This document shows positions 7,701 through 43,007 of a stretch of DNA of 64,000 nucleotides, one piece after another. Made by a program: the position numbers and the translations under genes. The stretch covers positions 992,001 to 1,056,000 of the forward strand of contig JAYWIR010000003.1 in assembly GCA_036172245.1 (NCBI GenBank), read 5' to 3'. The notes under the pieces are model-generated. The model searched no databases and was not told the origin of the DNA. It saw only the letters and a program-made list of their open reading frames with translations. Each line of letters opens with the position of its first letter. Positions within the stretch are counted from its first letter, which is position 1. This DNA comes from Raillietiella orientalis. Its lineage: Eukaryota.

Positions 7701-9302
7701 TAAACACGCACTGATTCACGTATAAGCAAGTGGACCACAAAGAAATCGGAAAAGCTGTATTGTACAGATAGAAAGGCAGTTATGGAAGAATTTCAACAAG
7801 TCACACATACAACACGCAGGTAAGGGTAGCGCTCTCATACTGCCCGGAACTTTCGAGCCCCTGACCCTCATCCTAGCGATTTCGAAGCGCTGACGGTCGA
7901 GATTCGGGAAGGATGGGGAGGAGGGGGGAGGGGAACCAACCATCACTGTTTACAAGGCGTGAGCCACTCTTGGAACCAACTCTGTGAGATGCCTTTCATG
8001 TTTCTTCGAGTGCACAATACTCTCTATCGAACTACATAGACTCCCCCGTGCCTGCACGCCAGACGCAGAGGAGCAGACCGACGCAGGCGCAACCCACGGC
8101 AAAACCAATTCGGAATGCAAACACAATCAATAGGGAACGAAAGGAAAACCGACAGGAGCGTGGCTCCTACCGCGGCGTCAGCCCGAACTGGTTTGCCAAA
8201 AAAAAAAAAAGAGGAAAGAAAAAAAAAAAGGGGGGGGGGGAATAAACGGGGAATGAAAAATTCCGGACAATCAATCACGATCGGATTCCGGGAAAGAGAA
8301 TGGGCAGTTTTCGCCAGAAAAATAGGGGGGAAATGCTACTATGGTGCACCTCGTGAGGACCGTCGAAAATGAACCCAGCTCTCCAAACCTCAAAGTTCAT
8401 CACCATCGCGAAATCGAACTGATGCGCCCACAGATACAATTGAGACACACACACACACACACACATACGCATCCTACACTGCTAAAAAATCATTACGGAA
8501 AGGTAGTAAATACTTTTTATCTTTCATTAAAAAATACTTTAAATTCTTGCAAATGACTAAATACACGGATTTTCAAAACGCTTTTATGTACCACGAGCAG
8601 TAACCTCGCAAAGTACGTGGCTGATGTGAATCTGCAATCAAAAACTGAATTTTTGATGATAAATATGAGGCAACACAACAGATAAATCATCAAATTTACG
8701 TCCTTAAGATAAAAGGCGTGCGTTCATACCAACGGTGATCTTGTTTTGAGTTTCTCACGAACTGCACCTTCAATTGAATCTCCGTATAAACAGAACACAC
8801 ACACACACACATCCCATATATTACTTTCATATCCGACATGAACCAAACCATTCAACATGATTCTATTACTGAAAATGCATAAATTAAATCAGTTTTGAGG
8901 ATTCAGCTGAAACATGCTCATTCTACCAGTAAGTGTACAACAAAAAGAAATGTACGAAAAACGAAGACATTCAAAAATTTAACAAGAAAACATTTCTTTT
9001 AAAAGCAAAAAAGGCTGTAATGATGATGTATACACTTGAAACCTACAGTGCTCACATACATACCCCTGTTCCTCCATGACTTCTTCTAATTCCACACATC
9101 TAACTTCAATTTTCCGCTTTCTTTCATGATCCAAAATTTCTGGGTTTGGGGGTCTATATGTAACAGCATCTAGCTTTTTGATTTCTTCTTCTGTCTTATA
9201 ATTTACTTTTTCTTTATGCTTTCTAATAAATGACAGATTACGCTGCACATATCCATTTGTGCCTGAGCCCCTAGCAGTAGGCAATCCAATTCCATTATAC
9301 AT
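1772..9302 (-). CDS. SRRM2: SRRM2/SRm300 (cwf21-domain) splicing factor; exons 9064-9302, 7201-7308, 2054-2317, 1949-2005, 1776-1895; 3' end uncertain
   Basis: MYNGIGLPTARGSGTNGYVQRNLS, PNPEILDHERKRKIEVRC, FSQEEIERKIIAFREML..DEFGRPI, ESHQAAEAQQEKNNRLREALGI..FVDGSSFD, then Lys/Ser-rich tail. All junctions GT-AG and phase 2. Read-through of the last donor gives TAA at 1772-1774. Confidence 0.92.
4220..7100 (+). mobile_element. Degenerate LINE ORF2 relic (APE endonuclease + RT), antisense in SRRM2 intron 2
   Basis: Collinear eroded motifs: INWT..KLREVLAKDMLDLL (endonuclease N-terminus), VFGGDFQ at 4611 (GDFN), DSAHL (SDH), PEW, RIAI..FKHL, GETPQGTLL near 6445 (GVPQGS), YDYT (YADD). Many stops and frameshifts. 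Confidence 0.5.
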
Positions 9303-9739
9303 TTTTGAATGTTACTAGCAAATAAAACTGAAACACAAGAAGCACTACCAAATTAAACCATCAAAGCTATAAAATAAACTGATACCCTCCCAGACCAATT
9401 CTTTACTAATTTCTATGACAGCATCAAAAAGTCTAAATTAAAAATCCATGTATTATGTAATCCATTATATATTTTATATTCACATTTAACCTATGATTAC
9501 TTTATCAAAAATAAATCAGTAAATACAAATTTCAGCATTCACCAATTTTGGATTACAATACTTGGATTCTGATGAACAAAAAGTTGGCTAGATACCATTA
9601 CTATACGAATGTTTGTGAACAGGATTAATCATCGCAGGAATGCTTAAAACAACTTAGCAATAAAATGGAACAATTTCATAGGAAGGTAAAACTAATGTTT
9701 AAGAAACAGTAAAATGACAATTACATCAAAGAGAGCATT

Positions 9740-10935
9740 TAAATCAATACCATCACGATTTCTCCAATGGAAATAGGCATTAGCCTGCTCCTTCTTTATA
9801 ATAAAAAAAGTCATTGAAACATCAAGCACCTGGAAATCATGTATTTACCTCATAAAATCTTCAATCACTTGGTGTGTTTGAACTGTGTTCAAATTATTAA
9901 TTCACATTTCTGTAATTCAGAAACAGCAAACCATTTTGGGATACGAAACAAGCAGCTTATATTCAGTTATCACTTCACAGAAGTACAGAAAATAATCAGT
10001 TTCCAGCATTACTTATGCTTCCATACATGGATATCAGTTTCAGATGCTGGACCTCATTGTGGATAAAGTCATTCAATTATCAGCTTCCGAAACATATACA
10101 AGAACACAGGTAAGAACATAGACATTCTTTGCTAGATGCATATATGAGTTTAATCTGAACACATAGTTGGCAGTTTACAGGCAAGGCATTGAAAAGATAT
10201 GGAAAGCACTTTCAAGTGCAATGTTTACAGTTTATGAAACAAATTTTTTTGGCATGTTGATTATGCTTCAGTAATGATAATCGCTATAGAACTTTCAATA
10301 GACATTCCTTTTTTCTGATGAACTGTAGCATCATGAACTGCTTTTCTCAACTCTTTTCATTAGTACTTCATTTTGTCACATGATCTGTGACAAAATGAAC
10401 TACTGTTCACTTGCAAAAGCTATTGTAATTTTTAAATACAGGCTGCAAATATTCAACAGACATTTGACAACAAACAATTTCATAAGATCATTTACATTAT
10501 TTACATCTATTAAACTCATCCTAGATATTGCACTCATATTGCATACAAGGACATACACTTTCGTGGATATTCTAATATTTTGCATAATTTCAATGAAATC
10601 CCATAACAGTTTCGGAAGCTGACAAATTGAATGACTTTATCCACAATGAGGTCCAGCATCTGAAGCTGATATCCATGTATGGAAGCGTAAGTAATGCTGG
10701 AAACTGATTATTTTCTGTACATCAGTGAATTGATAACTGAACATAAACTGTTCATTTCGTACCATAAAATGTTTTGCTGTTCCTGAGTTACAGAAACGCG
10801 GATTAATAATTTAAAGACAATTCAATACACCTAGTGATCGATTTTTATTAGGAAAATACATAATTCCCAGTGTGCTTAGACGCTGTAAATTTAGCAGGTC
10901 TGTATTCATGAAAATCGATTTTGATGGCGATAAAA
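9740..10935. repeat. Long inverted repeat; clear arms about 9824-10093 and 10609-10879, spacer about 515 bp
   Basis: 9983-10093 is the reverse complement of 10609-10720 with about 4 differences; similarity decays outward. Confidence 0.95.
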
Positions 10936-13900: not shown

Positions 13901-15137
13901 TATGCAACGCTCCATCAAATCAAAACAAGTCGAAATTTTATTTTTTCTCTCAATAGCAAAATCAAAATAACGAACTTTACACTTGAATTCATAATATGTT
14001 GGTCAATACCTCGTCTGATTTCTTTCATAATATGATTGAATTAAGACAAGAATTGATGAACTGAAGTACAAATCATTTATTGCCATTGAATTCTCTTGTC
14101 TCAAAGTTGAACTCAACTTTACATTGCTTTTGCGGACTTGTATTGTGGATTCCTCGGAAGATTTTGGCAGCAATTGGTTTTGGAGAGTGATAACTTTAAC
14201 CATGTTTGTTTTGGAAGTCACTGTATTTGTATTTTAAAGTAATTTCCAAAATGAATTGCATTATAGACTCGTTTTCATGATTTTCAAAGACACTAACGAA
14301 ACTAGTTGTATTTAAAAAAAGAAAAAGAAGCTTAAAACTGAAGTAGTGACTACGTAAATGAAAACGTAATCACATGACGTATATCACAGTAAAACAAAAG
14401 TGCTATGAACTCCTTGAAGCTTAACGACGATGCCTGAATTCGAGCCTACTTTAAACAGTCCCAAAGAGAAACTCTTATCTTGTCTTGCACTAACTGTGAC
14501 GTTCCTTAAAACTTTGCTTTTCTATGAAACAGCGATCAAAGTTCTTAGAAAGATGAATTTTTTAAATCGGGTTAATTTAATTTGCAAGATAATATAAAAC
14601 AAGATCCTGAGAGGGCAGTCAGTTTTACGCCTTCATTGTCTTTTTACTTCGAATTTGAGAAATCTCCAGTACACAGAACCAAGAGGTCAATAAAGAATAT
14701 GAGTACACTTATAAAGCATCCGGAATCAGAAACATTAAACTCGCTCTTCATAATTAGAAAAATTTGCTATTGTTTTATAAAGCACTCAATTCTTTCGTCA
14801 CAAAATAAAATGCAGGTGTATCTTTTAACTGGACTTTAACTTGGATTTGGTAATGACACCTTTCAAATAAAACATGAGGTCCAAAGCAACCAGTCAGAAG
14901 CTTGGTAAATATATCCGAGTCCTACGTGCGATGGTACTAGTGGGATGGATGGAGTTCGAATTTTCACAAACTTTTGACATTTTCGTGCTTGCTTTTCGCT
15001 TTTGAGTATACCACACCGTACCTCGTGGTTTTTTGAAAACTTAATTAATAAGGCAGAAATTGTGTGATACGTTTGCCACCTTCACAAGCTGCAGAACATT
15101 TGGTTTCTTTGTACTTTTTCATGCGGTGAACGGTAGC

Positions 15138-16128
15138 ATGTCTGTGGTGAGTATTGAATCTGAAGTTTGATAATTTGCAATATATTCATGCATGTGTAAT
15201 GTTGTCGAATAGTAATTTAGTTTTTGTATCGTAATTTTTTCCCCCCAATATAAAGCTTTTACTTCGATTCTACGTCATTCACTCTCGTGAGTTGAAACGA
15301 ATGCAGTTTCCATTTGAGTATTTTCAATTTGGAGCAATGCAGTTTGAATTTATTTGAACACCTGATGCCCCCAATGATGAACCGCAAAACTATTTGTGTG
15401 AAAATTAGCATGAAAGCATTTCAGTTTTCACAACCGTGTAACCACTGAATTAGATTAAAAAGCATACGGAGAAACCCTACAGATAATACTTTGGTAGTGT
15501 ACATACCAAATGGCGATCAAAATTCAAACCCATTTTTATTAAAAAACGCAATTTTCGTTTCTCCTCATCTGCTCCTTTAAGTGTATTCATGATTACCTTA
15601 ATTTTGAAACAATTCAAGGATGAATTTCAAATTAAATACAAATTAGTGTAACTGGTTTTTTGTATTTTGAAAGCTAATATGTATTCTTTGTAGTTCTTCA
15701 ATAAATCACTTGTCTATGTAAAAATCTAATTCATTTTAAGTTTCTTCACTTACATGAAATCTTGTAGGGACAAGGAGATCAAAAAGAGAAGAAACGAAAA
15801 GAAAGTATTCTTGATTTATCAAAGTATTTGGACAAAGCCATCCGTGTAAAGTTCTCTGGTGGCAGAGAAGCATCTGGTATTCTCAAAGGATTTGATCCTC
15901 TCTTGAATCTGGTTTTAGATGATACAGTGGAATACCTTCGAGGTAAGATCACTGCCAGCAAACAGATTATTCAGTAAATGGGTAGATCCTGATGATCCAT
16001 ACAAGTTAACAGAAGACTCCAGACAGTTAGGTTTAGTGGTATGTCGAAGTACAGCTGTTGTTCTGATTTGTCCTGTAGACGGGATGGAGAGCATTCCCAA
16101 CCCCTTCATTCAGCAAGAAAATCAATAA
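15138..16128 (+). CDS. LSM7: U6 snRNA-associated Sm-like protein LSm7; exons 15138-15146, 15768-15942, 15986-16128 (108 aa)
   Basis: KESILDLSKYLDKAIRVKFSGGREASGILKGFDPLLNLVLDDTVEYLRDPDDPYKLTEDSRQLGLVVCR..IPNPFIQQE. The 9-nt first exon (ATG TCT GTG|gtgagt) is less certain. Confidence 0.95.
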
Positions 16129-16157
16129 ACAGAACTGATATTTATGGAGATCTTATT

Positions 16158-17136
16158 TCAAATTCTGATGAGTATAAATGTAATTGGTAGCAACAAGAAA
16201 AATAATGTTGCTAAAGATATCCGATGACCTCTGTTGCAAGCATCTGTAGAACAAGTGTATACACAGGACCGCTGTTCTAAGGTGTCCCCTGGTCGTTTAT
16301 AGTATTCACAGTAATTTCCCCAACTGCGAGATGAGCAGAAACGTTTTGTTCCCAAATCTCCTAGGGCATACATAATTTAAAAACTGTAATCCCAGGTTAA
16401 AAGCAACAGAGGTAATTTAGAAACATACCTATCACACTCAAGTACAGTTAAAAGTAAATGTTATGTGACTAATATAGAAGTACATCAAGGAAATCCAAGA
16501 CCACAACCTTGAAAGCAGATGCCAAACGACCAGTTAAGTGCAGTAATATTTTTAAAATCATCACATTAAAAGATCAATGCATAAATTTTCAAAGAACGAA
16601 ATAGCATCAGAAACTAACCTCCTGATATTCCTGTCATTTTTATGCAGTATGCTGCATCATGCAAATGATTACAGTCCATGGGCATCAAATCTGTAGTTGC
16701 CACAAAAAATTCGGTGCACTCTAATGAGCTATTACATTGGTAACATTGTATTGCAGAACCTAAATTGTAGAACGAACAACATAAACAAACCATTTATCAG
16801 ATAATCTTACACCCTAACAATGGCTGTACTTGAGCGCTAGTTACACAATGAAAAATTCAAATCCATATAGTACTGAGTGAAAATTTACAGCTGTTTTGAG
16901 TATTACAATCGGTTTCACTGTTGATACTTATTCAAACTTGAGCGCAAATATTGATGCACCACAAATTTTTCATTTCACCATTAAAGTTATTCACATGATT
17001 AATTTGCGCGTTGGGATGTCTAATGAATTGATATCATGCTAATGTTTGAATAAAATGTAACAATAATTAGTTACTTACTCTGCTTGCAAAGAAGACTGTA
17101 AAACAAATAGATTAAACATACACATTTGTTACACAT
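16158..17136 (-). CDS. Ly6/uPAR three-finger (quiver/sleepless-like) protein, probably GPI-anchored; exons 17079-17136 (tentative), 16619-16759, 16158-16360
   Basis: IQCYQCNSSLEC..DC..YCIKMTG..GTKRFCSS..GNYC..RSCVYTCSTDACN followed by a hydrophobic tail; phase-1 introns; candidate signal-peptide exon MCNKCVCLIYLFYSLLCKQ. Confidence 0.85.
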
Positions 17137-19829
17137 TATTTACAAAATACACACACTATTGCCACATGCAAAATTATTTATAAGCAGGTTTTTTTTCTTT
17201 GACAGAAGTTAAAACTTCGAATTCCGAATTACGCCCCAACAATTCATTTGATCTACCATTTCCAAAAGTGGAGTACGACAGGGTGCTTAATCTGCATGTA
17301 ATTATGCAAAAGAATTTAGAGATCACAAGCATTACATGGGAAAACGGTTTTAACAATAGTTGCAAACTTCGACGTTGGCCAGGTAAAACTGTGAATTGTT
17401 CTGGCCATTATTTTCCAATAAATAATGCAAGTTTTACTACTACATTATCCATCGTCAAGCAATGCAATCACATTAATGAAAGTTCTAGCAAAAACTATGC
17501 TCCTGTGAAAACTTTAGATATGTTCTGATACATTACGTAACTTAAGAGGAATATATCTTCAGTAACGGATGAGTATCATTGGCAACTCTTATTAATATGG
17601 GAGTTGCCCCTAGGTTGTACACTGCTCCCGAAAATTAGAGTATTTATTTCAATAATATTTGTGCATAAACAAAACTGAATTTGAAATGAAAATTTTGCTA
17701 AACGCTTCTCATCCAAATATGAATTTTCTTAATCTTTTTGCATTACTGAAAGAATAAGTACCATTGAGGTCCAGTCACATAAAGATTACAAAATTCATTA
17801 TATTCGTTATTCTTTTAGGACCTACAAATGTAGTCTATAAAACTTTCTTAACCAATCCATCTTTAAAATAGAATCATTTCCCAATGATGCTTCATTTGAG
17901 AATCTGTTTTTTGAAGTACACGTATATCCAAGTTAGCATTTTTGTAGCATTTACAAAAAAATTGCATGCACTTACTGAATCAAAAAACTGTTCTCCAAAA
18001 AATATTAAAACAAATCGATATCTAAACTCTGTAGATGTGTAGGTAAAGCCTTTCGAAAGATTTATTGGAAAAATTGGAAAATGATCAAAACCAGATACGA
18101 GAAAAAACCTGAAGTGTCTGCATCCAAAGATGCTCGCCAAATGTTTAGGGAGACTTCAAGTGCTAAACAAAAAATGTTCAGTATAGTCCGCAATTCCAAA
18201 GCAACGAGGAGTTCTATAGCCTATATAGCCTAAAGTCCGAACATCTGAAACATCAAAAGCTTATCGACTAAACATCAAAATGGAAAAAGTGACTTTTCGC
18301 AACTCATAGAGAGCTGGGAAAACTGATACTTCAATGACATTTTGTTTTCTCTAAGGGTCGGCGAAAGCTACGGAAGTCGGCTTGCACTGATAAAAAATTA
18401 TCAACCCTATCTGGAAACAAAAACGGAGATTACGCTACCGCTTTCAATTAAAGGAAACTCCCAAACTAGGATGCATAAGGAGAACTCGAGAGAATCCCTT
18501 TGTATCTTTTTCGTAATGGTTCAGCCTTAGCGTCTGATATATAATCGAAGAATGTGAAAGACTTCCGCCTGGAGACGTGTACCTAGACGTCTATTTCAAT
18601 CCTCGCAAAGAGAAAAATGAAGAGTTTTTCTACAGGCAGTAACTCTAGGTAGCCTTAGACAACAACTAAGCAAGATCAATTAGAAGATTATTCACTTCAC
18701 TGAGGCTCTTTTTTAAGAAAAACATGATAAAAGGTATGGCAGCAGCCGGAGAGTCGCTGGAATCTCAGGAGGATTTTCGTCATAATATTTCTGAGGTCCT
18801 GTTGAAGAAGTAAATGATATTCAGAATATGTGTCAATTTACAGTAGGAGCCTACCGATAAATGATACTACTTTCAAGAGAAATGTATAAGAGAACAACAA
18901 TCCAACACCAAAAGCAGTAGAAGAGAGGTGCAAATCTATCGAGGAAAAAAAAAAATGTTCAGTCTCATTTGTCAAGAGCAGTAAGCAGTGCAAATACATT
19001 GTAAGATTATCTTAAGCATGTGAAGTGTAAAACCGATCTCGTGCATAACGTGCTGGTGCAAAGGGTTCTATAATTTAATGGAACAAAGCAAAAAGGACCC
19101 AATGAGATTTGACTTATATGCTTAATAGCCTGAACTTCAAGATACTCTGTAATCAGTGAGTACTTTGCAAACAACGATTATCTCTCATCAAATACATGAG
19201 ATGAGAAAACCACATAGACATTGAAAGGATTCCCAAATCATCTATATAAGCAAATAAAAACTATTAAAATCTTGTCTGAGTATTCAAAAGGTACTCGGAA
19301 ATTTCTAAATAAAAGGAAAAATATTGTTAACAAAATATCAATGTGATGGAAAAGCGCAATTATTTGAAAAGAAAAAAGTCATTAATCATGAATAAAATAG
19401 TGATGACAAGACGTTCTGCTTTCCAACGAAGACATCAATGAATGTAAATTTAAATAAACCATAATATAAATAATTTTATTCCGTCATTCGCATTTCTGAA
19501 GTCATTTGGTTCCATGCGTTCCATGCATTCTATTTTGTGATTAAAAAAGACAGAGAGACGCAAAGTAAATGAGAGAATCCTTCTGCAATTTAAGTTTCAT
19601 TTCTATGAGAAAAGGAAAACCATTATCTAATTAGGAGCGTCTAGACAGGAGCCCTTATAGCTCCAGATAGTGCATCTTTCGCATTATCTATAGCAAAGAA
19701 TCCACTAAGCGAACTCTTATCTAAAGGTATGATAAAAACGAACTCCCATCAAGAGGTACTAAAACAATCAATCACGCAAGAAAACTATTCATGCTATCTA
19801 GAACATATTTGATTTGCATAAGATTGTGC

Positions 19830-20337
19830 TAATGGAAACGAAATGTAACCTCCGATTGGAAGCGAATCTTAAGAATAAAGGAAGGAACTTTTCACAAATC
19901 TTATTTTTGTAAAAAGGTGGATTATTTACATCCACACTTTCAGTTAGCTGTCCCTTTCTCCGTGGTTACAAATTATTCCAATCAGTGCTCATCAGAAAAT
20001 GTGCTCATCAGTCACTATTTGTAGTTAAAAGGAGTCAGCATCTCGCTGGAAAGTTCCATCCGATGGAATTTCATTTTTCCCGAACAACTCCGATTCACGA
20101 AGCGTTTTATCTGCTCCCCTTGCAACGTTTGAGATGTTAGTTTGTAACTCCATAAAGCGCAATATTATTTCCTGCTTGCCCCTCATTTTCTTCTGGAGGT
20201 TGCCTCCTTGTGCAAGACACACTTGGCAGCACGATTTCTACCGCAACCCTGCGTAACCTCATTCTCCACATTGTTCTATGATATGTGTTCTCAGAATCCC
20301 ACAAAAAGTGAAGACGTAATTTGTTGGAAAAAACTTA
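19830..20337 (+). repeat. 508-bp direct repeat, copy 1 (candidate promoter plus non-coding leader exon)
   Basis: No difference seen versus 24873-25380 (offset 5043); the ORF track also gives identical 65-aa translations for both copies. Candidate donor GAC|GTAATT at 20316. Confidence 0.95.
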
Positions 20338-21407
20338 GAGATATTCACAATTAGTCCATACCTATTTTTTTTTATATCCCTAAAAAATGTAAAATATCAA
20401 AATGGGGGGGGGGAATCGTTGAACTTTTCAGTTACCATTTTGAAATGAGCCCCAGATAATATTGATCTGATGTTCATTTTTTCCATTTCGAACTCTATCG
20501 TTAGATTATCTCCGATGAACTTAGATATTTGTCATGGCATTTAAGTTTGTGTTCAACTTAGACATTAGGAATTGTGGACATTTAACTAGTAAGGTTTCTT
20601 TACCTTATGCCATTTCTTTCACTCGGTGAAAATTTTCTCATTTATGAACGTGCATATTGGTTAAGAATTCAGGGTATGTAGGTTCTCATTGAAGTGGAAA
20701 TAAAACTATTTTACATTAACATTTGGTTAACATACATATTTCTCTATACAGAGACTTGTTCTGCATTCACATATTCGAGTATGTGATTTGTTGTTAACAA
20801 CGAAATGGTAGCATATGTGGACATGAATTCTAAAGGCCTTAAACAATTCAAGGAGTCCTTGCTGTATATTTCTTTGTAAATGTAAAACAAGAAACATAGT
20901 CGAATTGATAGAATTTGCAACGAATGGCATTCTCTATGTATCAACGTCAGCTGCTCAAAATGGGTGAATATATTGCACTTTCATACTTAACGCAACTGCA
21001 ATGAATTTGAAGAGATTTCATAATTTTATTAATGAGGGCTTGCCATCAAGAGTATCTGAATGTTTACTTAGTTACTTAAAGCAATTTGTACAAATTTATT
21101 TACTTTGAACCCAAGGGACGAAAAATAGAGTTCTTCACTACCGCATGCGAAGAATCCCGCCAAGTATTTGCCAGTCTGCGAGTTAATTTGAGAGAGTTTT
21201 TCGCAAATTTTCAAGTAAACTTGGGTCGCATTCTCTTAGACGTGTGAATATCTGTTATCCAGAAGGAAGGCAATGCTTTGAATTCTTAGAGCAGAGGGAG
21301 TGGAAACTAAATGAATAGATGAATGAATACGAGTATTCGAATCGTTGCAGACGGCTGTTGAACTTATAGTGGCATCTGCCTCCTGACTTTCTATCGGTCC
21401 AATGCAA

Positions 21408-21985
21408 GTTTCAGATCCTACGTATACTTAAGATGTATTTTCCTCTGCATGTCTCTACCGCTGGTTGCAGCCATTGGCTAACTCCTACTTCGTATTCGAT
21501 TGGATTTCTATTTCATCACTTGTAAATTGATCTTCCATATGCAGAATCCTTTCTTGGACAGCTTCTAGGCATGTTTCTGATTGCTTCCTACTACATACTT
21601 TCTGTGTCCCCTCCCATTCCTGAACCAAGTCCTATTCGAATCCCAATCATCCCATGTCGATACCATAAGTCTTGTTTTGAGTAAACATTGCACACCTAGA
21701 GAATGTTTCTCCATACCAAAGTGATGGAATGAAAATGCTAAGTATTTTTTATTTTTTCCCATATCCATAGCTTTCCTCAGGCAATCACCCTCTGAGAACA
21801 GCTAACCTTAGGGAATGTGCAGTTCTCACATCCTTCAGTAAAGTAGGGAGTAAAATCAACGATCCCAATGGTTGAATGCACCCGAAATGCTGCCAATATG
21901 CATTTCTCGATCAAGGGTGAATCCCTCCCCCCCCCAACCAAATTGGAACGAGCCTGGCTTTTCCATAGTATTTTATAGCCAGAGT
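21408..21985 (+). pseudogene. Decayed duplicate of ERGIC1 exons 2-4
   Basis: Collinear nucleotide similarity at about 5 kb offset: ctaccgctggttgcagccattg..gtattc..ctatt..ttgta vs ctaccgttactggagcaatag..gtattc..ctatt..ttgta; aaacattgcac..aatgtt..atggaatgaaaatgctaagt vs aaagattgcag..aatgtt..atggaatgcacatgtaatt; gagcctggcttttccat vs gaagccaggttttacat. No intact frame. Confidence 0.7.
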
Positions 21986-22232
21986 GTGTTTGGATCCATA
22001 TTGGTACTTATTGCCGAACACCACGTAAGCGCGCTGCCCCGTGTATTTGACTGTTCTTCTAGCAGCTTCAGTGGGATGCTGTGATAAACTATGCAGTGGT
22101 TCTCAGCACAGACAAAGCTGCTGATGTTGTGTTAATGAAATGTTGCACAGTAGTTGTTTTTGCCGTCTTTACGAAGAGGTGTTCAGATTTATGTGACAGG
22201 TGCTTATTGGAATTCCCGCTCTTGTAACTAAC

Positions 22233-23102
22233 ATGTTGCAACAGTTCTGCAACACCAGCATGAACCGCATGTTTTCGGTATACACGCAGAATATCATCAA
22301 CAAAAGTGTTTTCAAAACAGAGCTTCTAGCCGGTGAGCATAAAGGTATCTTTTCTCTGGGAATAAACAGAGCAGAAAGGAAGAATGCTATAAGCAAAGCA
22401 TTTGTGCAGGAAATGGACGATATTTTAGATGAAATTGAGTCGAACACTCAAGTGCACGTAGTTGTGTTGCATAGTGTGGTCCCCCAAATATTTTGTGCTG
22501 GTGCAGATTTGAAAGAACGTGAAGAAATGAAGATTAGTGATGTTGTCCCATTTGTTAGAAAACTGAGAAAACTCACTCTTAAACTCCAGCAACTGACACC
22601 TGTTACCATTGCTGCTATGGATGGCCATGCACTAGGAGGAGGACTGGAGCTTGCTATGTCTTGTGATTTGTTAATCTGTGCCTCAGATATCAGACTGGGG
22701 TTAGTCGAAACCAGTCTAGGTATATTTCCTGGTGCAGGGGGCTGTGCAAGAATGTCCCGCCTCATTGGATCACTGAAAGCTAAGGAATTGGTTTTGACTG
22801 CAGAAGTGTTTAATGGCGAGAAAGCAGAAAAGTTGGGTTTAGTGAACCGTGCAGTTTCTCAGAATAGTGAAGGAAATGCTGCTTTCCAAGCAGCTCTCTC
22901 TTTGGCAAAAAAGATTACAGCGAATGCTTTAATGGCTACTAAATTAGCCAAGTTTGTTCTCAATCATGGTTATGATATAGATTTGAAAACAGCATTGGCA
23001 TTAGAAGAGGCAGCCTATTCTTCTACTGTTTTTTCGAAGGATCGTTCTGAAGCTTTGAAAGCCTTCAAAGAAAAACGCCCTCCAATCTTTACAGGAGAAT
23101 AA
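22233..23102 (+). CDS. AUH: Crotonase-family enoyl-CoA hydratase, AUH (methylglutaconyl-CoA hydratase)/ECHDC2-like; intronless CDS
   Basis: GINRAERKNAISK, FCAGADLKER, AAMDGHALGGGLELAMSCD, GLVETSLGIFPGAGG, AFKEKRPPIFTGE; both catalytic Glu present; first ATG at 22233. Confidence 0.88.
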   Translation: MLQQFCNTSMNRMFSVYTQNIINKSVFKTELLAGEHKGIFSLGINRAERKNAISKAFVQEMDDILDEIESNTQVHVVVLHSVVPQIFCAGADLKEREEMKISDVVPFVRKLRKLTLKLQQLTPVTIAAMDGHALGGGLELAMSCDLLICASDIRLGLVETSLGIFPGAGGCARMSRLIGSLKAKELVLTAEVFNGEKAEKLGLVNRAVSQNSEGNAAFQAALSLAKKITANALMATKLAKFVLNHGYDIDLKTALALEEAAYSSTVFSKDRSEALKAFKEKRPPIFTGE

Positions 23103-24872
23103 TTGAATTTTTATTAGATGGAATCTTAAATTAGGCCATAAAATTTTTTATGGCAAGTTATTAAAATATTAGTTCAGCATGTTCTAGCAAAATTTAATGC
23201 CAAGAATTGGAGTTATAGATGTGCAGAGAACAAAGAAACTCTGTTATCCTCTGTTTTGCAATATAGTATGATTTTTAGATGAAAATGTAGCTGCAAATAT
23301 TATTATGTTGGCAGGTTTTTGTATAACACTATGCCTGTTTAGTCACTGATAATTTGTGCTATTTTTTACATTCTGAAAGTTTGTCATGTTACTTGATATT
23401 GGGGATACATATGGCACTATGTCAAAACTGAATGCATGAAATAACTTGTTTTGATTAATGGAGTAATATTTTAACTTGAGTTCTTCAATCCATGGATCCC
23501 AAAGTTCCAATTTGGAATTTCACATTAAACAGAGGACCACATATACTTGAAAAATAATAAATGGAGATTATTATTGGTAGACACACCATTTCCTGGTGAT
23601 TGAGTGCTGAATTATTATTTAAAAACTTTTGTTTCATTGTGTCTAGCACAATCTTTTCAACACGAATTGATAAATAGGTTGCTGAACTATGCAAATTGTC
23701 AACTAGTTACCTAGTTTGAGTCACATGGAACAAACTATTGATGTATGTGCGTGCACCATGGTCAATTCTTGATACAAACAATGTTGCATGCCACATTCAT
23801 CAATTAAATAGTCGTGTGTTTCTTTAATGAAAAGAGGAGATTGAAGATGATCTCCACATAATATTTGTAAATGATTACGATATGATTAGAAGGGGAGGGT
23901 TGTAGATTTTGATGCTTATGGATGCTGGCATCAGGAGTGAAAACACTAAGGAAGCATATGGATATGGATGGATAAGATAAAGTGAAAATTGTTTTTCTTT
24001 AAAAATTTGTTGTACCAGTTAGCACAAAGTGGGATGAGGGTTGAAAGTGGACACTGCTGTTGCAACTGGAGCAGTACTATTGAAAATGGAGTGATTATTT
24101 TGGTTATGGTTTCTAACCAAAAAACTGGTGTGGGCTGTTGAGAATGTTTGGTTTGTGTTGCTACGTGTGCTGTTAATGCTGTGAGACTTTAAACATTAAA
24201 GGGAAGGGGAAAGTTGTCAGGAAATTTTGGCAAGAGGATGTTTGGATAATACATGGAATGAACATGGTGAATGGAATTGGAATCCTGGTAGTGATATGAA
24301 CTTCCAAACTTTGCATGTTTAACTTATGGAGGATGTGCAATTTAACCTTGCTCTCCATCCCGTATTTGAAGATTATTATACAATTGTGTGCATATGAAGA
24401 CTGCTGATACGAGAAACAAAGACTTGCCTTATATTTGCATCTATGTGAAATGCAGCATCTTACATCTTAAGCACCCTTTGGAACAGCATAAAGTGTGTAG
24501 AGTTGTCTACAATGGTCATCGCAAATGGAAAACGCTCAATTCACTCTCACTTTCAGTCAGTTTCCAAGTCGGTCTTGATTTTAAGCTGATGAAAGAAATC
24601 TACATATTGGAAGCCATTCCATGGTTTTCCCGGTGATCACATAGAATCATGCGTGCATCAACTTGGAAGTAGCCCCAAGCAAATGAAGTTAGCTAATTTC
24701 GTCACGAAGTCGTCTCATGACCTGGGACCCCATGGTCATGTACTCTTGCAGAGACAGGAATGTGCTTAGCAGCTCACAAGAGATGTTCTCCATGAAGTCG
24801 TTACCAGAATGACAAACGTCCCTAAACACTAACTTTTCCTCAACAGCCTCGAATCAAAATATTTGATTTGCA

Positions 24873-25380
24873 TAATGGAAACGAAATGTAACCTCCGATT
24901 GGAAGCGAATCTTAAGAATAAAGGAAGGAACTTTTCACAAATCTTATTTTTGTAAAAAGGTGGATTATTTACATCCACACTTTCAGTTAGCTGTCCCTTT
25001 CTCCGTGGTTACAAATTATTCCAATCAGTGCTCATCAGAAAATGTGCTCATCAGTCACTATTTGTAGTTAAAAGGAGTCAGCATCTCGCTGGAAAGTTCC
25101 ATCCGATGGAATTTCATTTTTCCCGAACAACTCCGATTCACGAAGCGTTTTATCTGCTCCCCTTGCAACGTTTGAGATGTTAGTTTGTAACTCCATAAAG
25201 CGCAATATTATTTCCTGCTTGCCCCTCATTTTCTTCTGGAGGTTGCCTCCTTGTGCAAGACACACTTGGCAGCACGATTTCTACCGCAACCCTGCGTAAC
25301 CTCATTCTCCACATTGTTCTATGATATGTGTTCTCAGAATCCCACAAAAAGTGAAGACGTAATTTGTTGGAAAAAACTTA
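24873..25380 (+). repeat. 508-bp direct repeat, copy 2 (upstream of ERGIC1)
   Basis: Matches 19830-20337; candidate donor GAC|GTAATT at 25359. Confidence 0.95.
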
Positions 25381-26418
25381 TTCACAATATGCACAATTCT
25401 GTTTTCCCTTTAAATCCCTAAAAAGTGCGTTACGATTCATTTCTTTTCCTTAAGGTTTAGAATGCCATCATGCAAGAACTTAGAGTTCGATGCTGAAGGT
25501 GTTCGTCAATGTTTTAGTGATGTCTCAAATAATGGAAAAAAAAAAAAACTTCTAAAATAATTGATGCACACATTGCAGCACGTTCAAATCGTGCCGGAAA
25601 TGCTAAAACCGTTTCAAATCAAATAAAAAAGTCGAATCTCGTAATAAGCAAAATTGCAACGAAATATTAAATCACGGGAAAATTTTTCTTACAAATAAAG
25701 ATGCAGACATAAAAACTTGGGGTGCAGATCTAAATGTGTTTATAGTTTTAGAATTTTAAAACGGACTGGAAGTTTTATTTTATAGAGGTTTTGCTGTGGA
25801 ACTTCGATCCAGTGTTTTGAATTTGACAAAGAAACAAACAGGAACAAATGCTTACAAATGTTAAATAATGCCATTTCTGTCGAGACATCTTAATTTTTCA
25901 TTCATGATTTATTTGAATTTTTTTCTTCTGCCATGAAATTCTGAGCTCGGAGTCGGAGCAATCGGTGCAGATGCATCAGATGTATCTGTGCCGCCTTCGC
26001 CATGAGGTGTGAATTGCTCACGAACACATATGTCATTTCAATGATTTTTCTTGGATCTGACGATGACGTTTTCGGTGGGAACCATCCGTTCAGCCATATA
26101 CATTTCAAGTTAAATTATTTTTATTTAGTAATTTTTGCGTTAAAACAGAACTGGTTTGGTTTCGAGGCTAGTTTCCTCGAACCATTTACGTTTTAGTAAA
26201 ACGTAAACGGTAATGAACCAAAACGCTCAAAATTGTATTTCTTTTCAAAAATTGTGATGTTCTTAGTTGAATATTGAATATTATGCATTGAATTCTCATG
26301 TATTCATTATAGAAATGATGTTACAATTTTGAAAGCGGGTAACCAAGAAGTGTAGTGGTGTTGTCTAGTCATGTTATTATTGCACTGAATTTCATATATA
26401 GAGAAAGAACTGTAGATT

Positions 26419-27602
26419 ATGAGAATCGATATTAAAAGGTAAGAGGTCCCTTTTTCGTTTTTTGATATGTTTTAGTAATTATTGTTTCAGATTCGATATT
26501 TATAGGAAAATACCCAAAGATCTAACACAGCCTACCGTTACTGGAGCAATAGTTTCTCTATTCTGTATTCTTTTTATGACTATTCTTTTTTTGTATGAAT
26601 TCAGGCAGTTTATAACCAGAGAAATGTAACTTATTTTATATTTGAAAAAAAATTCAATTTAACAAATTTCAGTGTATCAGAAATTTATGTAAGCACATCA
26701 AATAGTGATGAAAAGATTGCAGTACGTCTAAATGTTAGCATCCTAAATATGGAATGCACATGTAATTATATTTTTAGCATTATTAAAAGTTGGTAATTTG
26801 TGATTAGACCTTGGATTAGATATTCAAGATGATCGGGGCAGACATGAAGTAGGATTTGTGGAAAATACTAATTTAATTCCCCTGGGTGAAACAGGTTGCC
26901 TATTTGAAGCCAGGTTTTACATCAATAAGTTACCAGGTGAAATGATCTTCATTTCTACTGCAAAATTTGCAACAAGATAATTTAGGAAACTTTCATCTGT
27001 CAACCCATTCAACCAAAGAGCAACCAAAAAAGTATGACTTTGCTCATCAAATTCATGAATTAACATTTGGAGATATAATAACATCTTCTCAAGTGCCAGG
27101 TAGTTTTAATGCTCTTAAAGGATGCAGCCATCTGGATAAGAATGGTGAGTTACTTCAAAGCCTAGTGTGGTGATGTTTTGCAGACTTGGTGACACATGAT
27201 TATGTCATCAAGTTAGTACCTACCATAGTAGATCATAGCAACATGCCAACACAAGTGACTTACCAGTACACATATGCTTATAAAGTGAGTATGATTACTT
27301 TGTACTGTTGGAATGTCCATTTATAGTCATATATTACTTTGAATTTAATGGGGCCCAGCATGCCAGCTCTGTGGTTTCGTTATGATCTAAATCCACTCAC
27401 AGTCCATTACAAGGAAAAGATCCAGCCACTGTATAATTTTATTACCTTGGTAATTGGGAAAGTTTGAACATAAAGGTTGTCATACTTGTTTTAGATCTGC
27501 GCTATCATTGGTGGAACATTCACGGTAGCTGGCATTGTGGATTCTTTCATCTTCACAGCATCTGGGTTGTTTCAAAAATGGGACATAGGCAAGCTGAGCT
27601 GA
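26419..27602 (+). CDS. ERGIC1: ER-Golgi intermediate compartment protein 1; exons 26419-26438, 26491-26625, 26673-26761, 26808-26936, 26986-27144, 27184-27284, 27327-27449, 27495-27602 (287 aa)
   Basis: RFDIYRKIPKDLTQPTVTGA, LGLDIQDDRGRHEVG, INKLPGNFHLSTH, THDYVIKLVPT, WFRYDLNPLTV, ICAIIGGTFTVAGIVDS, C-terminal GKLS; 7 GT-AG introns in phase. Confidence 0.96.
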
Positions 27603-30600
27603 TACCAAGATTTTTTGTTCAATTATCTGGTTTGTATTTTAAAACAAAAAAAGCCCAGCCAACAGTTTATCACTTTGAAAATTACCTTGACCCACTGAGT
27701 TTAAAACCTGATTATTGTGCATGATGTGAAAACTGATCTTTTCTTGGGTCAATAGTCAGAAAGATATAAGTTTTGTTAGCTACTTCCTGATAATATAAAT
27801 CTGTTGATGGGTATATTAGTTGTATACATACATTGATATGTATTTGTTTTTTACCAAATTGTGTGGATGAAGAGGACTGATGTATAAAACTGAATGCCTA
27901 TGTAGGGAAAAAAAAATTTGCATTTCTATAGTTGAACAAATGAGGTAGTTTGCTAAATAAATGTTACCAGCGGAATTTCTTAATCAGAAGGACGTTTTCT
28001 GAGTTTGTAACAAGTAATCGTTTTAAATATGAAATTTAAACTACTTAAATTGAATTCTTCTGAGAAATTTCGGCCAAGTTTGTGTATGAATATCGAACAA
28101 GAATGTTGTAAGCAGAAAACTAAACTGCTAATTTCAGGTACAAAGTAATAAGCATATTATAAATGTAACTATTCTAATGGTTGTAGTTCCTAAAATGTTC
28201 TCAGAGATCAATGACATCTCAGTAGACTAGCAATAATCACTGGTTACATCAAATTACTGCATGGAATTTTGTAATGTTTGACATGTCTCTGTTTATGAAT
28301 CATCCAGTTTGTTTCAATTATTATCATTTGGATTCTTTTTCTCCCCCTTCTGTGCCACGTTGCATGCAGAACTGACAAGACTGAAGTTTTTAAACAAGCA
28401 AGTTGTTTCATACATTACATGCAGTGCTGAGGAAGATTTTATTCAATTTCAAAAATTATTACCAGATAAAAACCTACATTGTTCTTGGCTTCATCATTTT
28501 TGTGTCAGTTTTGTCATAAATTTGCCGCATATGCTGGTTGAAAAGATCATTTACTGAACTCTAAATGGTGTTGGAAACATTCTATAAAAATATATGTTTT
28601 GTATTCTTTTTACAAACGTGCACCACGCATTCATGTGTGTGGGATTTTTATCATTCAACAAAAATGGTTGCTCCATAAGAAAATCAGTAATTGTTTTTTT
28701 GTGCTTTCACATGTTAGCTGGATGCGTAAATATGAGAATCTTAATAGTCTTATGTGCCATCTATGTGATAAAATCCTCTAATTGGATAAAGATTTATCTT
28801 TGGCATTGTTTTGTTCGAACAAGTACTTCCAAAGATTCTGGCTGGAATTCAGGTGTGTGGTAATAATTCTGATTAACTAGCCGAATGAAAACCTATTTAC
28901 TTGGAAATTTAAACCGAAATTAAGAAACTGAAAACTGAAACTGCAATTATGTTACATAGGGTTGCATCACAAGTGTAAATGAACAAGAAAGAGCAATCAT
29001 TTTCGATCACAAGCAAGATAAATCACTAAATAATTCTTTGATTTAATTAATAGATTGAATAGTTAAGTGAAACTACGGCAGTTGACGGAAGTGGATGTGT
29101 TGCGGAAGTCCCCCAAACTCTTAGCTTACCGTATAAGCTACGTAAAAAAGGACAATTTATCTTAGCTATTCATCCCGTAAACATTTCAAGCATTCTTATT
29201 CACCTTTGCATTTGTTGCTTATTTTTCCAATCGATTATTTTTAAATTTTGCACGTTCCTTGAATTCAATTATAGGTTGGCAAGCCTTTCTTGCATGCCAA
29301 ATATACCAGTCTCATACGTGCGCTGTTATAGCAGTTGTCGGACTTCCGCATCTTTTTAGAAACTGTGCAATCCTTAATCAGTTCAGATTCCTACAGAATT
29401 ATAATTTATTTCTTCTACTTCTCGCATGATGGGAGTTTGCATTCGTTTTCAAGATATGTTACTCTTTGTAACGTGGTGTAGTCTTTTCGTGTAAAAGAGA
29501 CAAGCATTTTCTAAACAAAATTCGACCTGTTTCATGTTTTCTTCTTTGCTGAAGGTGTTCCAATGTCACCGGTTCATTTGCACACTTCAAAACAAATGTT
29601 GAATCAATGTACGTTACCACTCGCATCTTATAGGAAAAAGCATGTCTTTTAATGAGTCTCTAATACAAAGTCTGAACGAGTATCCTGCTTCTTAAACATG
29701 CATCAGAATTCGGAGATAGTATTGAAAAAAAATTTTTTTTTTTTTTTTCTTTCATTGATGGCACTGGATGATTACCGTTCATGTGTAATTCAGTATTTCA
29801 GATTTTCGCATGGATATGTTCCTATATTAAACAATTATGATTGTTTTGACACATTCTTTATGAAGCTGTTCTCTTAAATAGATCTTTATGAACTCTTGGC
29901 GTTCATTATTTCGATTTCAATTAATTTTACTTAACTGAATTTAGTGAATCTTTGGTAATTACTTTGAAAATTATCTGAAATTCATCCTATACATATTTAC
30001 GCAAATCACTTCATTAGATTGCATGGAAATGTAAAGGAATCTTGAATTTTTGTTGAAACTCAAGAGCATCGAGTCCAGGCATACAGATTAGAAGTGTCCT
30101 TAAGACATCGAAGTTATTTGAAACCTATGGTTCTATTCTTTGAAGTTACTCTTTTTTTTTTTTGATCCTTCTATCTATCATTTTTAAGTCTTTAAATAAG
30201 GATGATGGTTTGTTACAGTCGAGTGTCAGATTCAAAATTATTTTGTATATGCTTCTCGCAAACAGTATGTAACATGTAATGCCTTTTCTCTGGCTTATGA
30301 AATTATTGTCGTGGAAATTATATTATAAAGAAATAAAAATAAAGATAAATTAATTGTAATCTGTAGTTGGAAATAGATAAATTGAAAAGTGATATGAGGA
30401 CTCGGTATTCAAAAAGTGCTGCAAATAATAGATCACTCCTCTTTGATTTTTTTTTATCCAAAGGAACCAAAGTTATCTTGCCATATCGTCAGAAATTGTT
30501 CCTTAACAGAAATTCATATGTTGTTCTGTACTTCTCATGGAACTGTTAACCTTGTTCCAACTTCATTTACTTTTTTAAGTAAATATATGACTGTGCACTA

Positions 30601-31159
30601 TCATGAATTACTGCTAAAAGTGTACAACCCTGAAGGTACGTTCAGAGATATTTTCATCTTCCGCACATTCGTTAATGGGCACACTGAAGTTTTGGCTGCT
30701 GCGGAGGCGCGCGGTGTTGAGCTGTAGTGAGGGACGCGAGAGTCGCATATCGGGGTGAACAAGGTGGAAACGTACTCGTTTCGATTCGCAAGTAAACACC
30801 TAGCGCGGATTGCTTTCAAAATGCATTTTAAGCCCACAGATCCTTTAAAATCACGGTATTTCTGATTATTTGACTTCGCGCTTCTCCCGTAGTGGTATAA
30901 AATTTCTTTGACCAAAATCATCACGTACCCGTACATGATTGTTCATGTTTAATCGTTTGAAAGTCTTAGCCCGTAGCCTTGCAAAATTACATGTAATCTA
31001 AATTTGTAGTAATGCTTTTGTATTTGCAAGTTATGATCGAGCTGTAAGGGGTTAACAGTGTATTTAAAGCATTTTGTAAACAGGCAGCATACAAATGTAA
31101 AGTGAATGCCTAACAACAGAAAAAAAATACAAGTTTCATTTGGATGATATCAGCTTGAA

Positions 31160-32040
31160 ATGGCCCTGTATAGCGTGATGCATAAATTGCATAGACTGGC
31201 TGTTTCAGGTGGACATTCTCATCTAAATGCATTGGAACTTCCACAGAGTCTGTTGTAAGGCATATGATTCTCTTATTGCAAATGTTTGTGTTTGTTTAGT
31301 ATTCAGCCTGCAGCAGCTTTTGTACCATCTTTAGTTTTATGGGGTTCAAGAGTTAAAGAGACAAATGTGCCACCTCCTCCAAGTTTTCCTCGTAATGCAT
31401 ATTTGTGGTATTTTGTGCGTGAAAGCCAAAAACTGCGACTGCTTCCTGAGTATGCTAACTTACCATATAAGGGTGAGGCATATTGAACAGATTAGCTCAT
31501 ATTTGCTCAGAGTTTGTAAGCAAGTTAGCTGAGTCTTGGCAAAGATTAGATGAAACTACTAAAACTGAATATATAAGAAAGTTTCAGGAAGCACTCCAAG
31601 AATTTCAAAGACAAAAATGTGCTTATGAGGCAACATTAACCCCAGAAATGAAAGAGAAGCTTTCCATGGAAAAGAAAGAGAAGAAGAGGTTGGCTAAACT
31701 CCGGCAAGAGAAGAAAGTATTGTATAGCTTATAAGTTTTCGATAACTATTTTGTTTAGGAATTAAGAGCTTTAGGGAAACCCAAAAGGCCTGTAAATGCT
31801 TTTGGATTATATGTTAAAGATCATATGGGTGAAAGAGGAGATGTTTCAGTGTGTGATTTCATTCAACACTTAGCTTCCCAGTGGAATCAGCTTCATGATT
31901 CTGAACGAGAACATTATGTTGCAAAAAGTCACGAGGCTAAACTTTCATATCAGCAGGAAATGCATGAATGGATTTTGGCTCTTGAAGCACAGGGTAAAGA
32001 CCACTTAGCAGCACCCTTTGTTAAGGAAAAAAAGCAATAA
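31160..32040 (+). CDS. TFAM: Mitochondrial transcription factor A-like (two HMG boxes); exons 31160-31254, 31300-31472, 31511-31716, 31759-32040 (251 aa)
   Basis: PPPSFPRNAYLWY..KLAESWQRLD..KTEY; linker YEATLTPE; ELRALGKPKRPVNAFGLYV..WNQL..YQQEMHEW..GKDHL; N-terminal extension consistent with a presequence. Confidence 0.88.
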
Positions 32041-32049
32041 ACGATCTAT

Positions 32050-33324
<1,275 letters not shown>

Positions 33325-35099: not shown

Positions 35100-36600
35100 G
35101 AACTGAAGAGGCAACTGCAAAGAGACTGAAGCCAGGACACGCCGAGCCTTTCATTGACCCGTTCGGTCTTGACTTTAGGTGATGGATCTGCCTTTGCTTG
35201 CCTTCTTTCCTGTACTCTCAAGGCTGAACTAGAAAGAATTGTGGCAGTGGTGGCGGTTGCCTGGCACCTCCAGTTCTCCAGACCGTTACAGTTTCTTCCT
35301 CTGTCGACGCTTGTATGAAAACTCAGTGAATCCCTGGAAAGTGGTGGCTGTGGAAGAATGGATCCGATCCCTCGCGACGACTTTTCGCTTTTTCAAGAGA
35401 TCCGTTACGTTTGCGCCTGTCCTCCTTTCGCATGCATGCATCCCACATGCTGCAAGGAAATCCCGTTCGCAAACCACCGTCCACCATCAGCTGTATGGAC
35501 GAAGAAACTGTTGTTTTTTTCTTGAATTCCCCGTCTGGCATCTTCCAGTTTCCGAAAAGTCCCCTTCGGACACCGACAGCCAGAGATCTTCCTCTTCTCT
35601 TCTTCCTCACCCAGTGCTGCCTCCCAGTCCAATATGCATATGAGAAAATACCTTCTTCCCACTAACAGATGCTTCCTGCAGGGAAAAGTTTGCAGTTTCC
35701 ACAAAAAGGATTGTGCAGAAGATTGTAAGTGGACCAGGAAGCGCTTAGCCGTTTAGCCGGTCCTCTCAAGCCTGAGGAAGGTGCACCAGGAGCGATGTAG
35801 CTCGAAACTCCTTCCCGTCGCCTTTCCTCATCCCCATCCTTCCCTTTTCCTCTAAGTTCCCATCCCCTTCTTACTCCCTGCAGTGCAAGCCGAGCACTCT
35901 TCCAGCCTTTTCTGGAAGTCCGGATATCCTTCCCCCGATGAGAATTCAAGGTACTAAAGAGGGAGGGAGTACCGTAGAAGCTCGCAAATCACGATCCTCT
36001 CCCGCCTCCGACTTACTGCTCGGGAGGAGACTCGGGAGGAGCGGGTGAGACTTGTTCGAGGGTTTTTCCTTTACCGCAGGCTTCCTCCTCTGCCGTTTCC
36101 GGCTCTTTCGCGTACCCCTACCTTCCCCGACACGCTTCCTGGAGTGCTCGGGTTCCCGTAAGCCTCGTCCGGGATCTCCTGGAAGACAGGGAGACATCTG
36201 CCTCTTCCATCCATGGGGGAGAGGAGGAAGAGAGAAGCGGGATTCACAGCCAGCGCCTTCTGGGATGAGTATTCCCGAGGGGCCCCTCCTCTACCCCAAG
36301 GGATCTTGCGCGGAACGCAGAGCAGGTAAGAATGGTAACGTCCGCAGCCTGAAGACCCGTGAAAGAGCGACCTGATCTCCATCCGAGAGACAGAGGGTAC
36401 CCACCCTCAGCTCCCATGACGTCCAGACACGGCGAGTTTCCAACCTCTCTCTCCCCCTCCCTCTCATCCCGTTCTCCGCCGGCTCTCCTTGTGGGAAGAG
36501 GACGCGACGAGGGCGGCAGGCCTGCGCACCGTCTCCCCCTTCGCCAGCCGAAAGCAGCGCCAAGGGAGAGGGGCGTTCTGCCACCATCCTGCAATCTGAT
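35100..36600 (-). mobile_element. Degenerate LINE ORF2 relic; inverted homolog of 36800-38300
   Basis: Reverse complement aligns patchily to the + strand relic on the right (coordinate sums about 73340-73400, e.g. 36110-36165 vs 37177-37234 and 35945-36000 vs 37343-37398). Confidence 0.5.
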
Positions 36601-36799
36601 CGACTCTGGAGAAGGAGGAGAGGAGTCTCCATCCATCGTCTTCGATCCACGGCAGGATCTTGACCTGGGAACATGTGGGGCACGGCTTGGCGTATCTCTC
36701 CCTCCTCCTCCATCATCAGCCACTTTGCACTTCCTCTACTCATGCGGAGGTAAAAAATTCCCAAACCTGGGCATGTAACCCTCCGGAAATCACCCCTAG

Positions 36800-38600: not shown

Positions 38601-38705
38601 ACCACGTGTTGTTGACAAGAATGGCGGAAGGAAGCGTTCGAATACGCCGCCTGTTAAGGACATCAATCAGAGTAGGGGAGACTAAGTAGGAAAACGCTTG
38701 ACAAT

Positions 38706-38776
38706 ACACACACACACACACACACACATGTATATGAAAATATATGTATGTATGTATGTGTGTGTGTGTATACACA
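38706..38776. repeat. (CA)n/(TATG)n/(TG)n microsatellite
   Basis: Visible directly. Confidence 0.9.
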
Positions 38777-39099
38777 TATAAACATGCATCCCCTCTGACA
38801 ATTTCTTTATTTGGCTCATGTAAAACTGGGTTTAAATAAGACTTCCACGCACTGGGATTCCTTGCGGGCTGCTGCAGTCTCGGCTCTCACAGTAAACCTG
38901 GAAACATACAGTGCATTTAGTTTTCGCAGGTGTTTTTCGAAAGAAAATAAAATGCATTGCTGTTTTTTTTTTTAAAAAAAGAACAAAGGTGCATTTCACA
39001 AACCGAGAGGAGTGTAAGAGTTAAGGTGAGTAAACAGACAGCACCGTATGGGAGCTAGAAGTTCGTATTCCTGTAACCTCGAACTGAGCCCATCAAACA

Positions 39100-39900: not shown

Positions 39901-39945
39901 TTGGAGGTTGCGGAGGCAGGGAAGGGTTGGACGCATTGATATCAT

Positions 39946-41442: not shown

Positions 41443-41544
41443 CTGATGTGAGAAAACAACGTGATTACTTATTTGTTTATTTTTTTTTTTCGTTTTTTCC
41501 GCCCGTGGGATCGTGGTTTCGCCCTCAGGCAACCCTCTCCGAAC

Positions 41545-42882: not shown

Positions 42883-43007
42883 TAGAGATTTACTCACCTG
42901 CATATTTTGAACAGCAATATTACCGGAACGGATACATTTATTTAGATTCAGAGACGCACATTCTATTAATATAATTAAGAAGCTATCGATTATATTCTTG
43001 ATATGTA

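Follow-up and report, generated by a model that had tools for sequence, protein, structure and literature searches.

A segment of about 590 bp occurs twice, in direct orientation, within a 64,000-nucleotide stretch of the Raillietiella orientalis genome (GenBank assembly GCA_036172245.1, contig JAYWIR010000003.1, positions 992,001 to 1,056,000, forward strand). This whole stretch is here called the window, and positions are counted from its first base. The safest statement about the locus concerns its structure: the segment has been duplicated directly, and its copies bracket 4.5 kb containing an intron-less gene of the AUH (methylglutaconyl-CoA hydratase) type. A second gene, ERGIC1, follows the second copy. 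The segment is referred to below as the block, and the 508 bp at its core are the same in both copies. The sequence features of the block suggest, at a rough probability of 0.4, that it is a duplicated promoter module which would place AUH and ERGIC1 under the same upstream control and might include a non-coding first exon; a neutral low-copy repeat is nearly as likely.

Extent and identity of the duplicated block

Comparison of the entire 64 kb with itself returned three repeat pairs, of which the block pair was by far the strongest. The cores agree at 508 of 508 bases (19830-20337 and 24873-25380), as a preliminary description of this DNA had reported; they lie in direct orientation with a start-to-start spacing of 5043 bp, and lose their exact match at precisely these limits on either side. 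A repeat search also returned 100% identity for the first 300 nt of the core pair. In JGI metagenome contigs, a 38-mer taken from the block had no exact match. The full homologous unit is somewhat larger (19802-20389 against 24856-25427; 589 columns, 94.7% identity in the blastn self-comparison), and every difference between the copies in the alignment falls in its rims, with none in the core. The right rim opens with six extra nucleotides in copy 1, which are followed by nine identical nucleotides and then by about 40 nt of patchy similarity that includes an 11-mer in register. The window has an overall G+C content of 42.5% and contains no N.

The preliminary description had further proposed that the sequences flanking the block are homologous and strongly diverged. 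This was not borne out beyond the rims, as homology ends 28 nt to the left of the core and about 52 nt beyond its right edge. Local alignment of 20390-22199 with 25428-26415 gave z 0.7 against shuffles, and that of 18300-19801 with 23350-24855 gave z 0.2; end-free global alignments of the adjacent 200-410 nt ranged from z -0.42 to 0.22, like random controls from the window. The two flank pairs that had been named individually gave z 0.4 and z 3.6, the second value resting on a 26-nt AT-rich stretch only and being non-significant in the wider search. Because the wider flanks align at background level, the duplicated unit is one of about 590 bp and is not a decayed 5-kb tandem.

The distribution of differences within the unit is informative about its history. 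A sharp-edged identical core set within slightly larger, diverged yet homologous rims, with the copies close together and in direct orientation, is also what is seen in gene-conversion tracts and in low-copy repeats that evolve in concert, although here, unlike in established conversion tracts, conversion is deduced from one genome. Differences that are confined to the rims and absent from the core are the pattern expected of a conversion tract, or of a very young copy with untidy junctions. The 508-bp core would thus be either very young or held identical by gene conversion, the short rims having drifted.

Table 1. Positions of the features discussed, numbered from the first base of the window
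Feature	Position	Strand	Details
Copy 1 core	19830..20337	+	base-for-base equal to 24873-25380
Copy 2 core	24873..25380	+	base-for-base equal to 19830-20337
Left rim, copy 1	19802..19829 (28 nt)	+	16 of 17 matching against 24856-24872; 11 nt extra in copy 1
Right rim, copy 1	20338..20389 (about 52 nt)	+	pairs with 25381-25427
Inverted pair of TTCCAATC (CCAAT-box type)	19854 reverse, 19976 forward (span 19854..19983); copy 2 24897, 25019		
Doubled 11-mer GTGCTCATCAG, 16-nt spacing	19985..20011; copy 2 25028-25054	+	directly after the forward CCAAT box
Palindrome, 10-bp arms, 1-nt spacer	20051..20071; copy 2 25094-25114		forty bases past the doubled 11-mer
Upstream ATG plus 10 codons (11 codons)	20283..20315; copy 2 25326-25358	+	phase 0 at the candidate donor
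Candidate donor	20316		score 3.9 (training sites 6.6-10.1); 5th of 28 GTs in the block; top 14% of 1276 GTs
Candidate 5' untranslated region (UTR) intron, AUH	20316..22199 (1884 nt)	+	putative; GAC/GTAATT ... GACAG/GT
Candidate acceptor, AUH	22199		score 3.6 (training sites 5.2-11.3); 15th of 100 AGs in the candidate intron
AUH-type (methylglutaconyl-CoA hydratase) open reading frame (ORF), intron-less	22233..23102	+	289 codons plus stop; Pfam ECH_1 1.1e-54
Candidate 5' UTR intron, ERGIC1	25359..26415 (1057 nt; 6100 nt if from copy 1)	+	putative
Candidate acceptor, ERGIC1	26415		score 2.6 (training sites 5.2-11.3); 14th of 46 AGs in the candidate intron
ERGIC1 coding region	26419..27602	+	8 exons, 287 codons plus stop, 7 introns of 39-52 nt
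cwf21/SRRM-type gene	8982-9311	-	cwf21 2.3e-09
LSM gene	15768-15974	+	
Ly6/Quiver	16617-16793	-	weak match
HMG-box gene	31477-32040	+	
CDK-like kinase	32050-33239	-	
MRP-S24	53340-53660	+	
N-SET gene	61292-61717	-	

The genes downstream of the two copies

The two genes had been named AUH and ERGIC1 from the sequence, and both names hold: the first by its ECH_1 domain and by methylglutaconyl-CoA hydratases of about 50% identity, the second by its ERGIC_N / COPIIcoated_ERV domains and by full-length ERGIC1 orthologues. The proteins closest to AUH are arthropod and vertebrate methylglutaconyl-CoA hydratases of similar length (44-52% identity), and its frame is open from 22197 to 23102 with the first ATG at 22233. 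The best identity in the protein collection was 52% for AUH and, for an ERGIC1 exon, 76% over 44 amino acids, and proteins of the species itself or of a close relative were not among the matches. Taken together, the best matches suggest an arthropod that lacks close relatives among sequenced species. Each of four AUH proteins gave one colinear high-scoring segment pair in tblastn (e.g., residues 12-299 on 22215-23099), and the coding region therefore has no intron.

The exon model of ERGIC1 was built with arthropod orthologues as guides. Aligned with four arthropod ERGIC1 proteins, it has 164-170 identical residues in 288-291 columns, with one to four gap columns. The ATG at 26419 is the conserved ERGIC1 start, since the first methionine of the model aligns with that of the orthologues. 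As a separate observation, the introns of this gene (39-52 nt, two of the seven with a GTAATT donor) give the appearance of a genome that favours minimal introns with weakly conserved donors.

AUH thus has no intron in 289 codons and ERGIC1 seven in 287, and the kinase, HMG-box and LSM genes of the window also look split over ORF fragments. An intron-less coding region where comparable genes have introns is the mark of a retrogene, and AUH is probably a retrocopy or another kind of secondary insertion beside ERGIC1. It is the only gene between the block copies. Elsewhere in the window there are no pseudo-exons of AUH or ERGIC1, all other tblastn matches having E of at least 0.05. Neither the six ORFs of the block nor those of the spacers contain a protein domain (Pfam search of 126 stop-to-stop ORFs from 9.2-26.2 kb).

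Evidence on a possible promoter module and leader exon

Each copy of the block precedes one of two consecutive genes, with which it shares the strand; the distance to the ATG is 1.9 kb for AUH and 1.06 kb for ERGIC1. Within the block, a reverse copy of TTCCAATC is found 22 nt inside the left edge (19854 in copy 1), and a forward copy 122 nt further on. This 8-mer occurs six times in the 64 kb when both strands are counted, and four of the six occurrences are inside the two block copies. Together with the doubled 11-mer and the palindrome that follow, these elements are plausible transcription-factor motifs. A further palindrome (26175-26205, 11-bp arms TTTACGTTTTA / TAAAACGTAAA) was noticed by eye past copy 2, ahead of the start of ERGIC1.

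Candidate splice signals accompany the motifs. The preliminary description had placed a donor (GAC/GTAATT) at 20316 and 25359, and acceptors just before each start codon. These elements are present as described: the GT follows GAC, identity between the copies stops 22 nt later, and the AGs end 33 nt ahead of the first AUH ATG (at 22199) and 3 nt ahead of that of ERGIC1 (at 26415). GTAATT is also the donor hexamer of two of the seven verified ERGIC1 introns, and the five donor hexamers used by ERGIC1 are jointly expected 0.07 times per 30 nt. The last ATG before the candidate donor (20283) is in frame with the ATGs of both AUH and ERGIC1 after the proposed splices, for which the chance is about 1/9.

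The proposed mechanism is as follows. The block would act as a promoter of the CCAAT-box type, possibly with a short non-coding first exon, and a copy of the same promoter would precede each of the two genes, the intron-less AUH and, downstream, ERGIC1. Transcription would start inside the block, and the transcripts would be spliced from 20315 to 22200 and from 25358 to 26416. The core would be kept the same by gene conversion between copies 5 kb apart, unless the copy is very young. An AUH without introns beside an ERGIC1 with seven fits a retrocopy in need of a promoter.

The earlier proposal of a duplicated promoter plus leader stands in part. The direct two-copy duplication, the lack of transposon hallmarks (described below) and the position of each copy upstream of a same-strand gene support it; the leader exon depends on moderate splice signals.

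Several further observations weigh against the block being a promoter module with a leader exon. Its splice signals are moderate and ordinary, with the candidate donor and both acceptors scoring below all seven training sites, in a splice matrix that is itself crude, having been derived from the seven very short introns of ERGIC1, and that may not describe long UTR introns. The ERGIC1 candidate acceptor at 26415 is preceded by a purine-rich stretch. At 1.06-1.9 kb, the proposed UTR introns exceed the coding introns (39-52 nt) 20- to 40-fold in length. The + strand of the block contains seven ATGs, and how many of them would fall inside the leader depends on where transcription starts. The arguments from the motifs and from the reading frame are post hoc. 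Finally, reading the sequence on both sides of AUH revealed no poly(A) relic, A-tract or short flanking repeat or target-site duplication.

Comparison with known systems

Two known kinds of locus offer parallels. At the cholinergic locus, for example that of Ixodes ticks (PMC7524744), two genes share a short exon 1, of 82 bp in ticks, and the ORF of VAChT, contained in one exon, lies in intron 1 of ChAT. In the R. orientalis locus a single-exon ORF likewise has a candidate non-coding exon on one side and, on the other, the coding exons of a second, multi-exon gene of the same strand, and the geometry would equal that of ChAT/VAChT if the leader of copy 1 also splices to ERGIC1. The cholinergic locus differs in having one physical shared exon, as RT-PCR has proven; the R. 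orientalis module occurs in two copies, its genes have unrelated functions, and the arrangement is known from sequence alone. The second parallel is with retrocopies, which often use the promoters of their neighbours and gain 5' exons (PMC4772013). AUH resembles these in being an intron-less coding copy beside a host gene with a possible non-coding exon upstream. In those retrocopies the host promoter is shared in place, whereas in the present case a promoter-like block would have been copied, and neither a poly(A) tract nor a short target duplication is visible.

A doubtful but specific history can be drawn up that joins these elements. An intron-less AUH would have landed in or beside an intron in the 5' UTR of ERGIC1 and would at first have depended on the leader exon of ERGIC1 for its expression, in the way that VAChT depends on that of ChAT. 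A conflict over termination might then have been resolved by the copying of promoter plus leader, as a 590-bp module, to a site downstream of AUH, and gene conversion would have kept the modules identical since. The outcome would be a mitochondrial enzyme and an ER-Golgi cargo protein under the same promoter. As the last ATG of the leader is in frame with both ORFs, the two proteins might in addition carry an identical N-terminal extension of 11 residues. The locus would be a further instance of known phenomena, namely small dispersed duplication, gene conversion and the reuse of promoters or first exons, and not a new kind of system.

Alternative explanations of the duplication

The strongest alternative, and one that is nearly as likely as the promoter module, would make the block a neutral low-copy repeat with no role in AUH or ERGIC1. 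It could be an interspersed repeat of unclassified type, or a small dispersed segmental duplication, that has come by chance to occupy two adjacent intergenic spacers and is either homogenised or young; transcription of each gene would then begin close to its own ATG. Gene conversion needs homology alone and not function, the splice signals of the block are only moderate, and, where introns measure 39-52 nt, one would not by default look for a promoter as far as 1-1.9 kb from the ATG. The features of the duplication itself fit such a repeat less well. No third copy, even degenerate, is present in the 64 kb (E up to 10, word 7), where the best other match had E 0.11 over 30 nt.

Nor does the block end as a transposable element would. 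The preliminary description had noted no hallmarks of terminal inverted repeats (TIRs), target-site duplication or long terminal repeats (LTRs), and this assessment was sustained, also with respect to transposable-element domains. Inverted repeats of at least 10 nt (seed 7), sought in the copies and about 20-30 nt on each side of them, were internal pairs only and did not provide the ends of a TIR transposon or a miniature inverted-repeat transposable element. TG...CA ends were present in neither the core nor the rims when the sequences were read, and the bases outside the block pair do not match as those of a target-site duplication would. Diverged rims around a perfect core are unlike young transposon copies. 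The position of both copies upstream of genes on the same strand, and the enrichment of CCAAT-type motifs in the block, also count against a neutral repeat and in favour of the promoter module.

It is unlikely that the blocks are the footprint of an insertion, i.e., that the 4.5-kb AUH segment (20390-24855) entered by way of staggered breaks or a single crossover and the target was duplicated in the process. The direct repeats do flank exactly a segment with one intron-less gene, and the sequences outside them are unrelated. However, this segment has neither a poly(A) end nor mobile-element genes, and rims that bear insertions and deletions are unexpected for a clean target duplication. Such a footprint would record the origin of the arrangement and not its function, and it is compatible with a promoter module as well as with a neutral repeat.

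An error of assembly or polishing, which would have given two similar stretches the same sequence or entered one stretch a second time, is slightly less likely again. A perfect 508 bp beside diverged rims could come from mis-mapped polishing reads. One low-depth DNA run (0.10 of sampled words) was placed on 15000-32000, giving 34 records. Among the 8 of 52 run pieces listed there were no differences from the region, which speaks against an artefact, though the run may come from the assembly's own sample; none of these pieces bridges a block edge, which leaves room for one. One piece of the run ends at 19830, which at such coverage is taken as coincidence. Depth in the bins of the block (0.67-2.24) lies within that of the neighbouring bins (0-3.55), a contig depth that is not a measure of copy number. 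The window is free of N, and both copies are flanked by unique sequence that bears genes, which also counts against an artefact.

There is very little to suggest that the blocks are the LTRs of a degenerate or non-autonomous retroelement that has captured an AUH retrocopy. The resemblance is one of arrangement: the pair consists of identical direct repeats, each about 0.5 kb long and 5 kb from the other, that contain promoter-like motifs and enclose an intron-less gene. True LTRs start with TG, end with CA and have a target-site duplication of 4-6 bp outside them, and the differences between a true LTR pair are spread along its length. The blocks, besides having neither the terminal dinucleotides nor the outside duplication, differ from each other in a cluster at their ends. 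No tRNA-primer-like site was seen on reading the sequence after copy 1, nor a purine tract before copy 2, and no gag, pol (reverse transcriptase, integrase, protease) or other transposable-element domain was found between the copies in the Pfam search described above. A search of 15000-30000 for tRNAs, including the tRNA-derived head of a short interspersed nuclear element, was also negative.

That the blocks are spliced-leader RNA genes, with the AGs before the start codons as trans-splice acceptors, can practically be dismissed. The idea draws on the donor-like GT, behind which comes a U-rich AAUUUGUUGG stretch, and on the AG just upstream of each start codon. Against it, an Rfam search of 19000-27000 gave no match at E up to 1, and the sequence past the donor, which should be conserved in a spliced-leader RNA, differs between the copies from 22 nt onwards. 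The predicted folding of 120 nt around the candidate donor did not surpass that of shuffled sequence (z 0.19 and 0.55) and was not the same in copy 1 and copy 2, which makes such a gene unlikely.

Other features of the window

The remaining genes recognised in the window are given in Table 1. Leftward of the cwf21 match, long open frames continue on the minus strand of 1-9311 for about 9 kb (46-51% G+C), in which Pfam gave no other match; the gene looks like a splicing factor of the SRRM2 type, one exon of which would be very long and of low complexity. Its 5' end is immediately preceded by an inverted repeat of about 270 nt (9824-10093 and 10609-10877, 86.8% identity), which might be a foldback element or else a promoter region of palindromic form.

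A second region of distinct composition extends from 36000 to 50000. Most of its 2-kb bins have 52-59% G+C (42001-44000 has 46.5%), compared with 32-40% in the AT-rich middle of the window, and it contains long open frames in several frames on both strands. The longest of these (39608-41464, minus strand, 619 codons) encodes low-complexity sequence rich in Ser, Thr, Pro and Glu and has no Pfam match. The region may be a large gene for a disordered protein or a non-coding GC-rich island. Inside it, a direct repeat of about 200 nt (44533-44728 and 45862-46049, 70.5% identity) is probably an internal repeat of a low-complexity gene.

Implications

Whatever the function of the block, identical direct repeats of 508 bp at a distance of 5 kb give unequal recombination a substrate, and deletion or duplication polymorphism of AUH is therefore predicted in populations. 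If the block is merely a neutral low-copy repeat, the finding is an ordinary one. If it is an active promoter with a leader exon, the locus would be a natural case of a new, probably retroposed gene regulated via a copied promoter and first exon of its neighbour, in which concerted evolution would keep two unrelated genes on the same control sequence.

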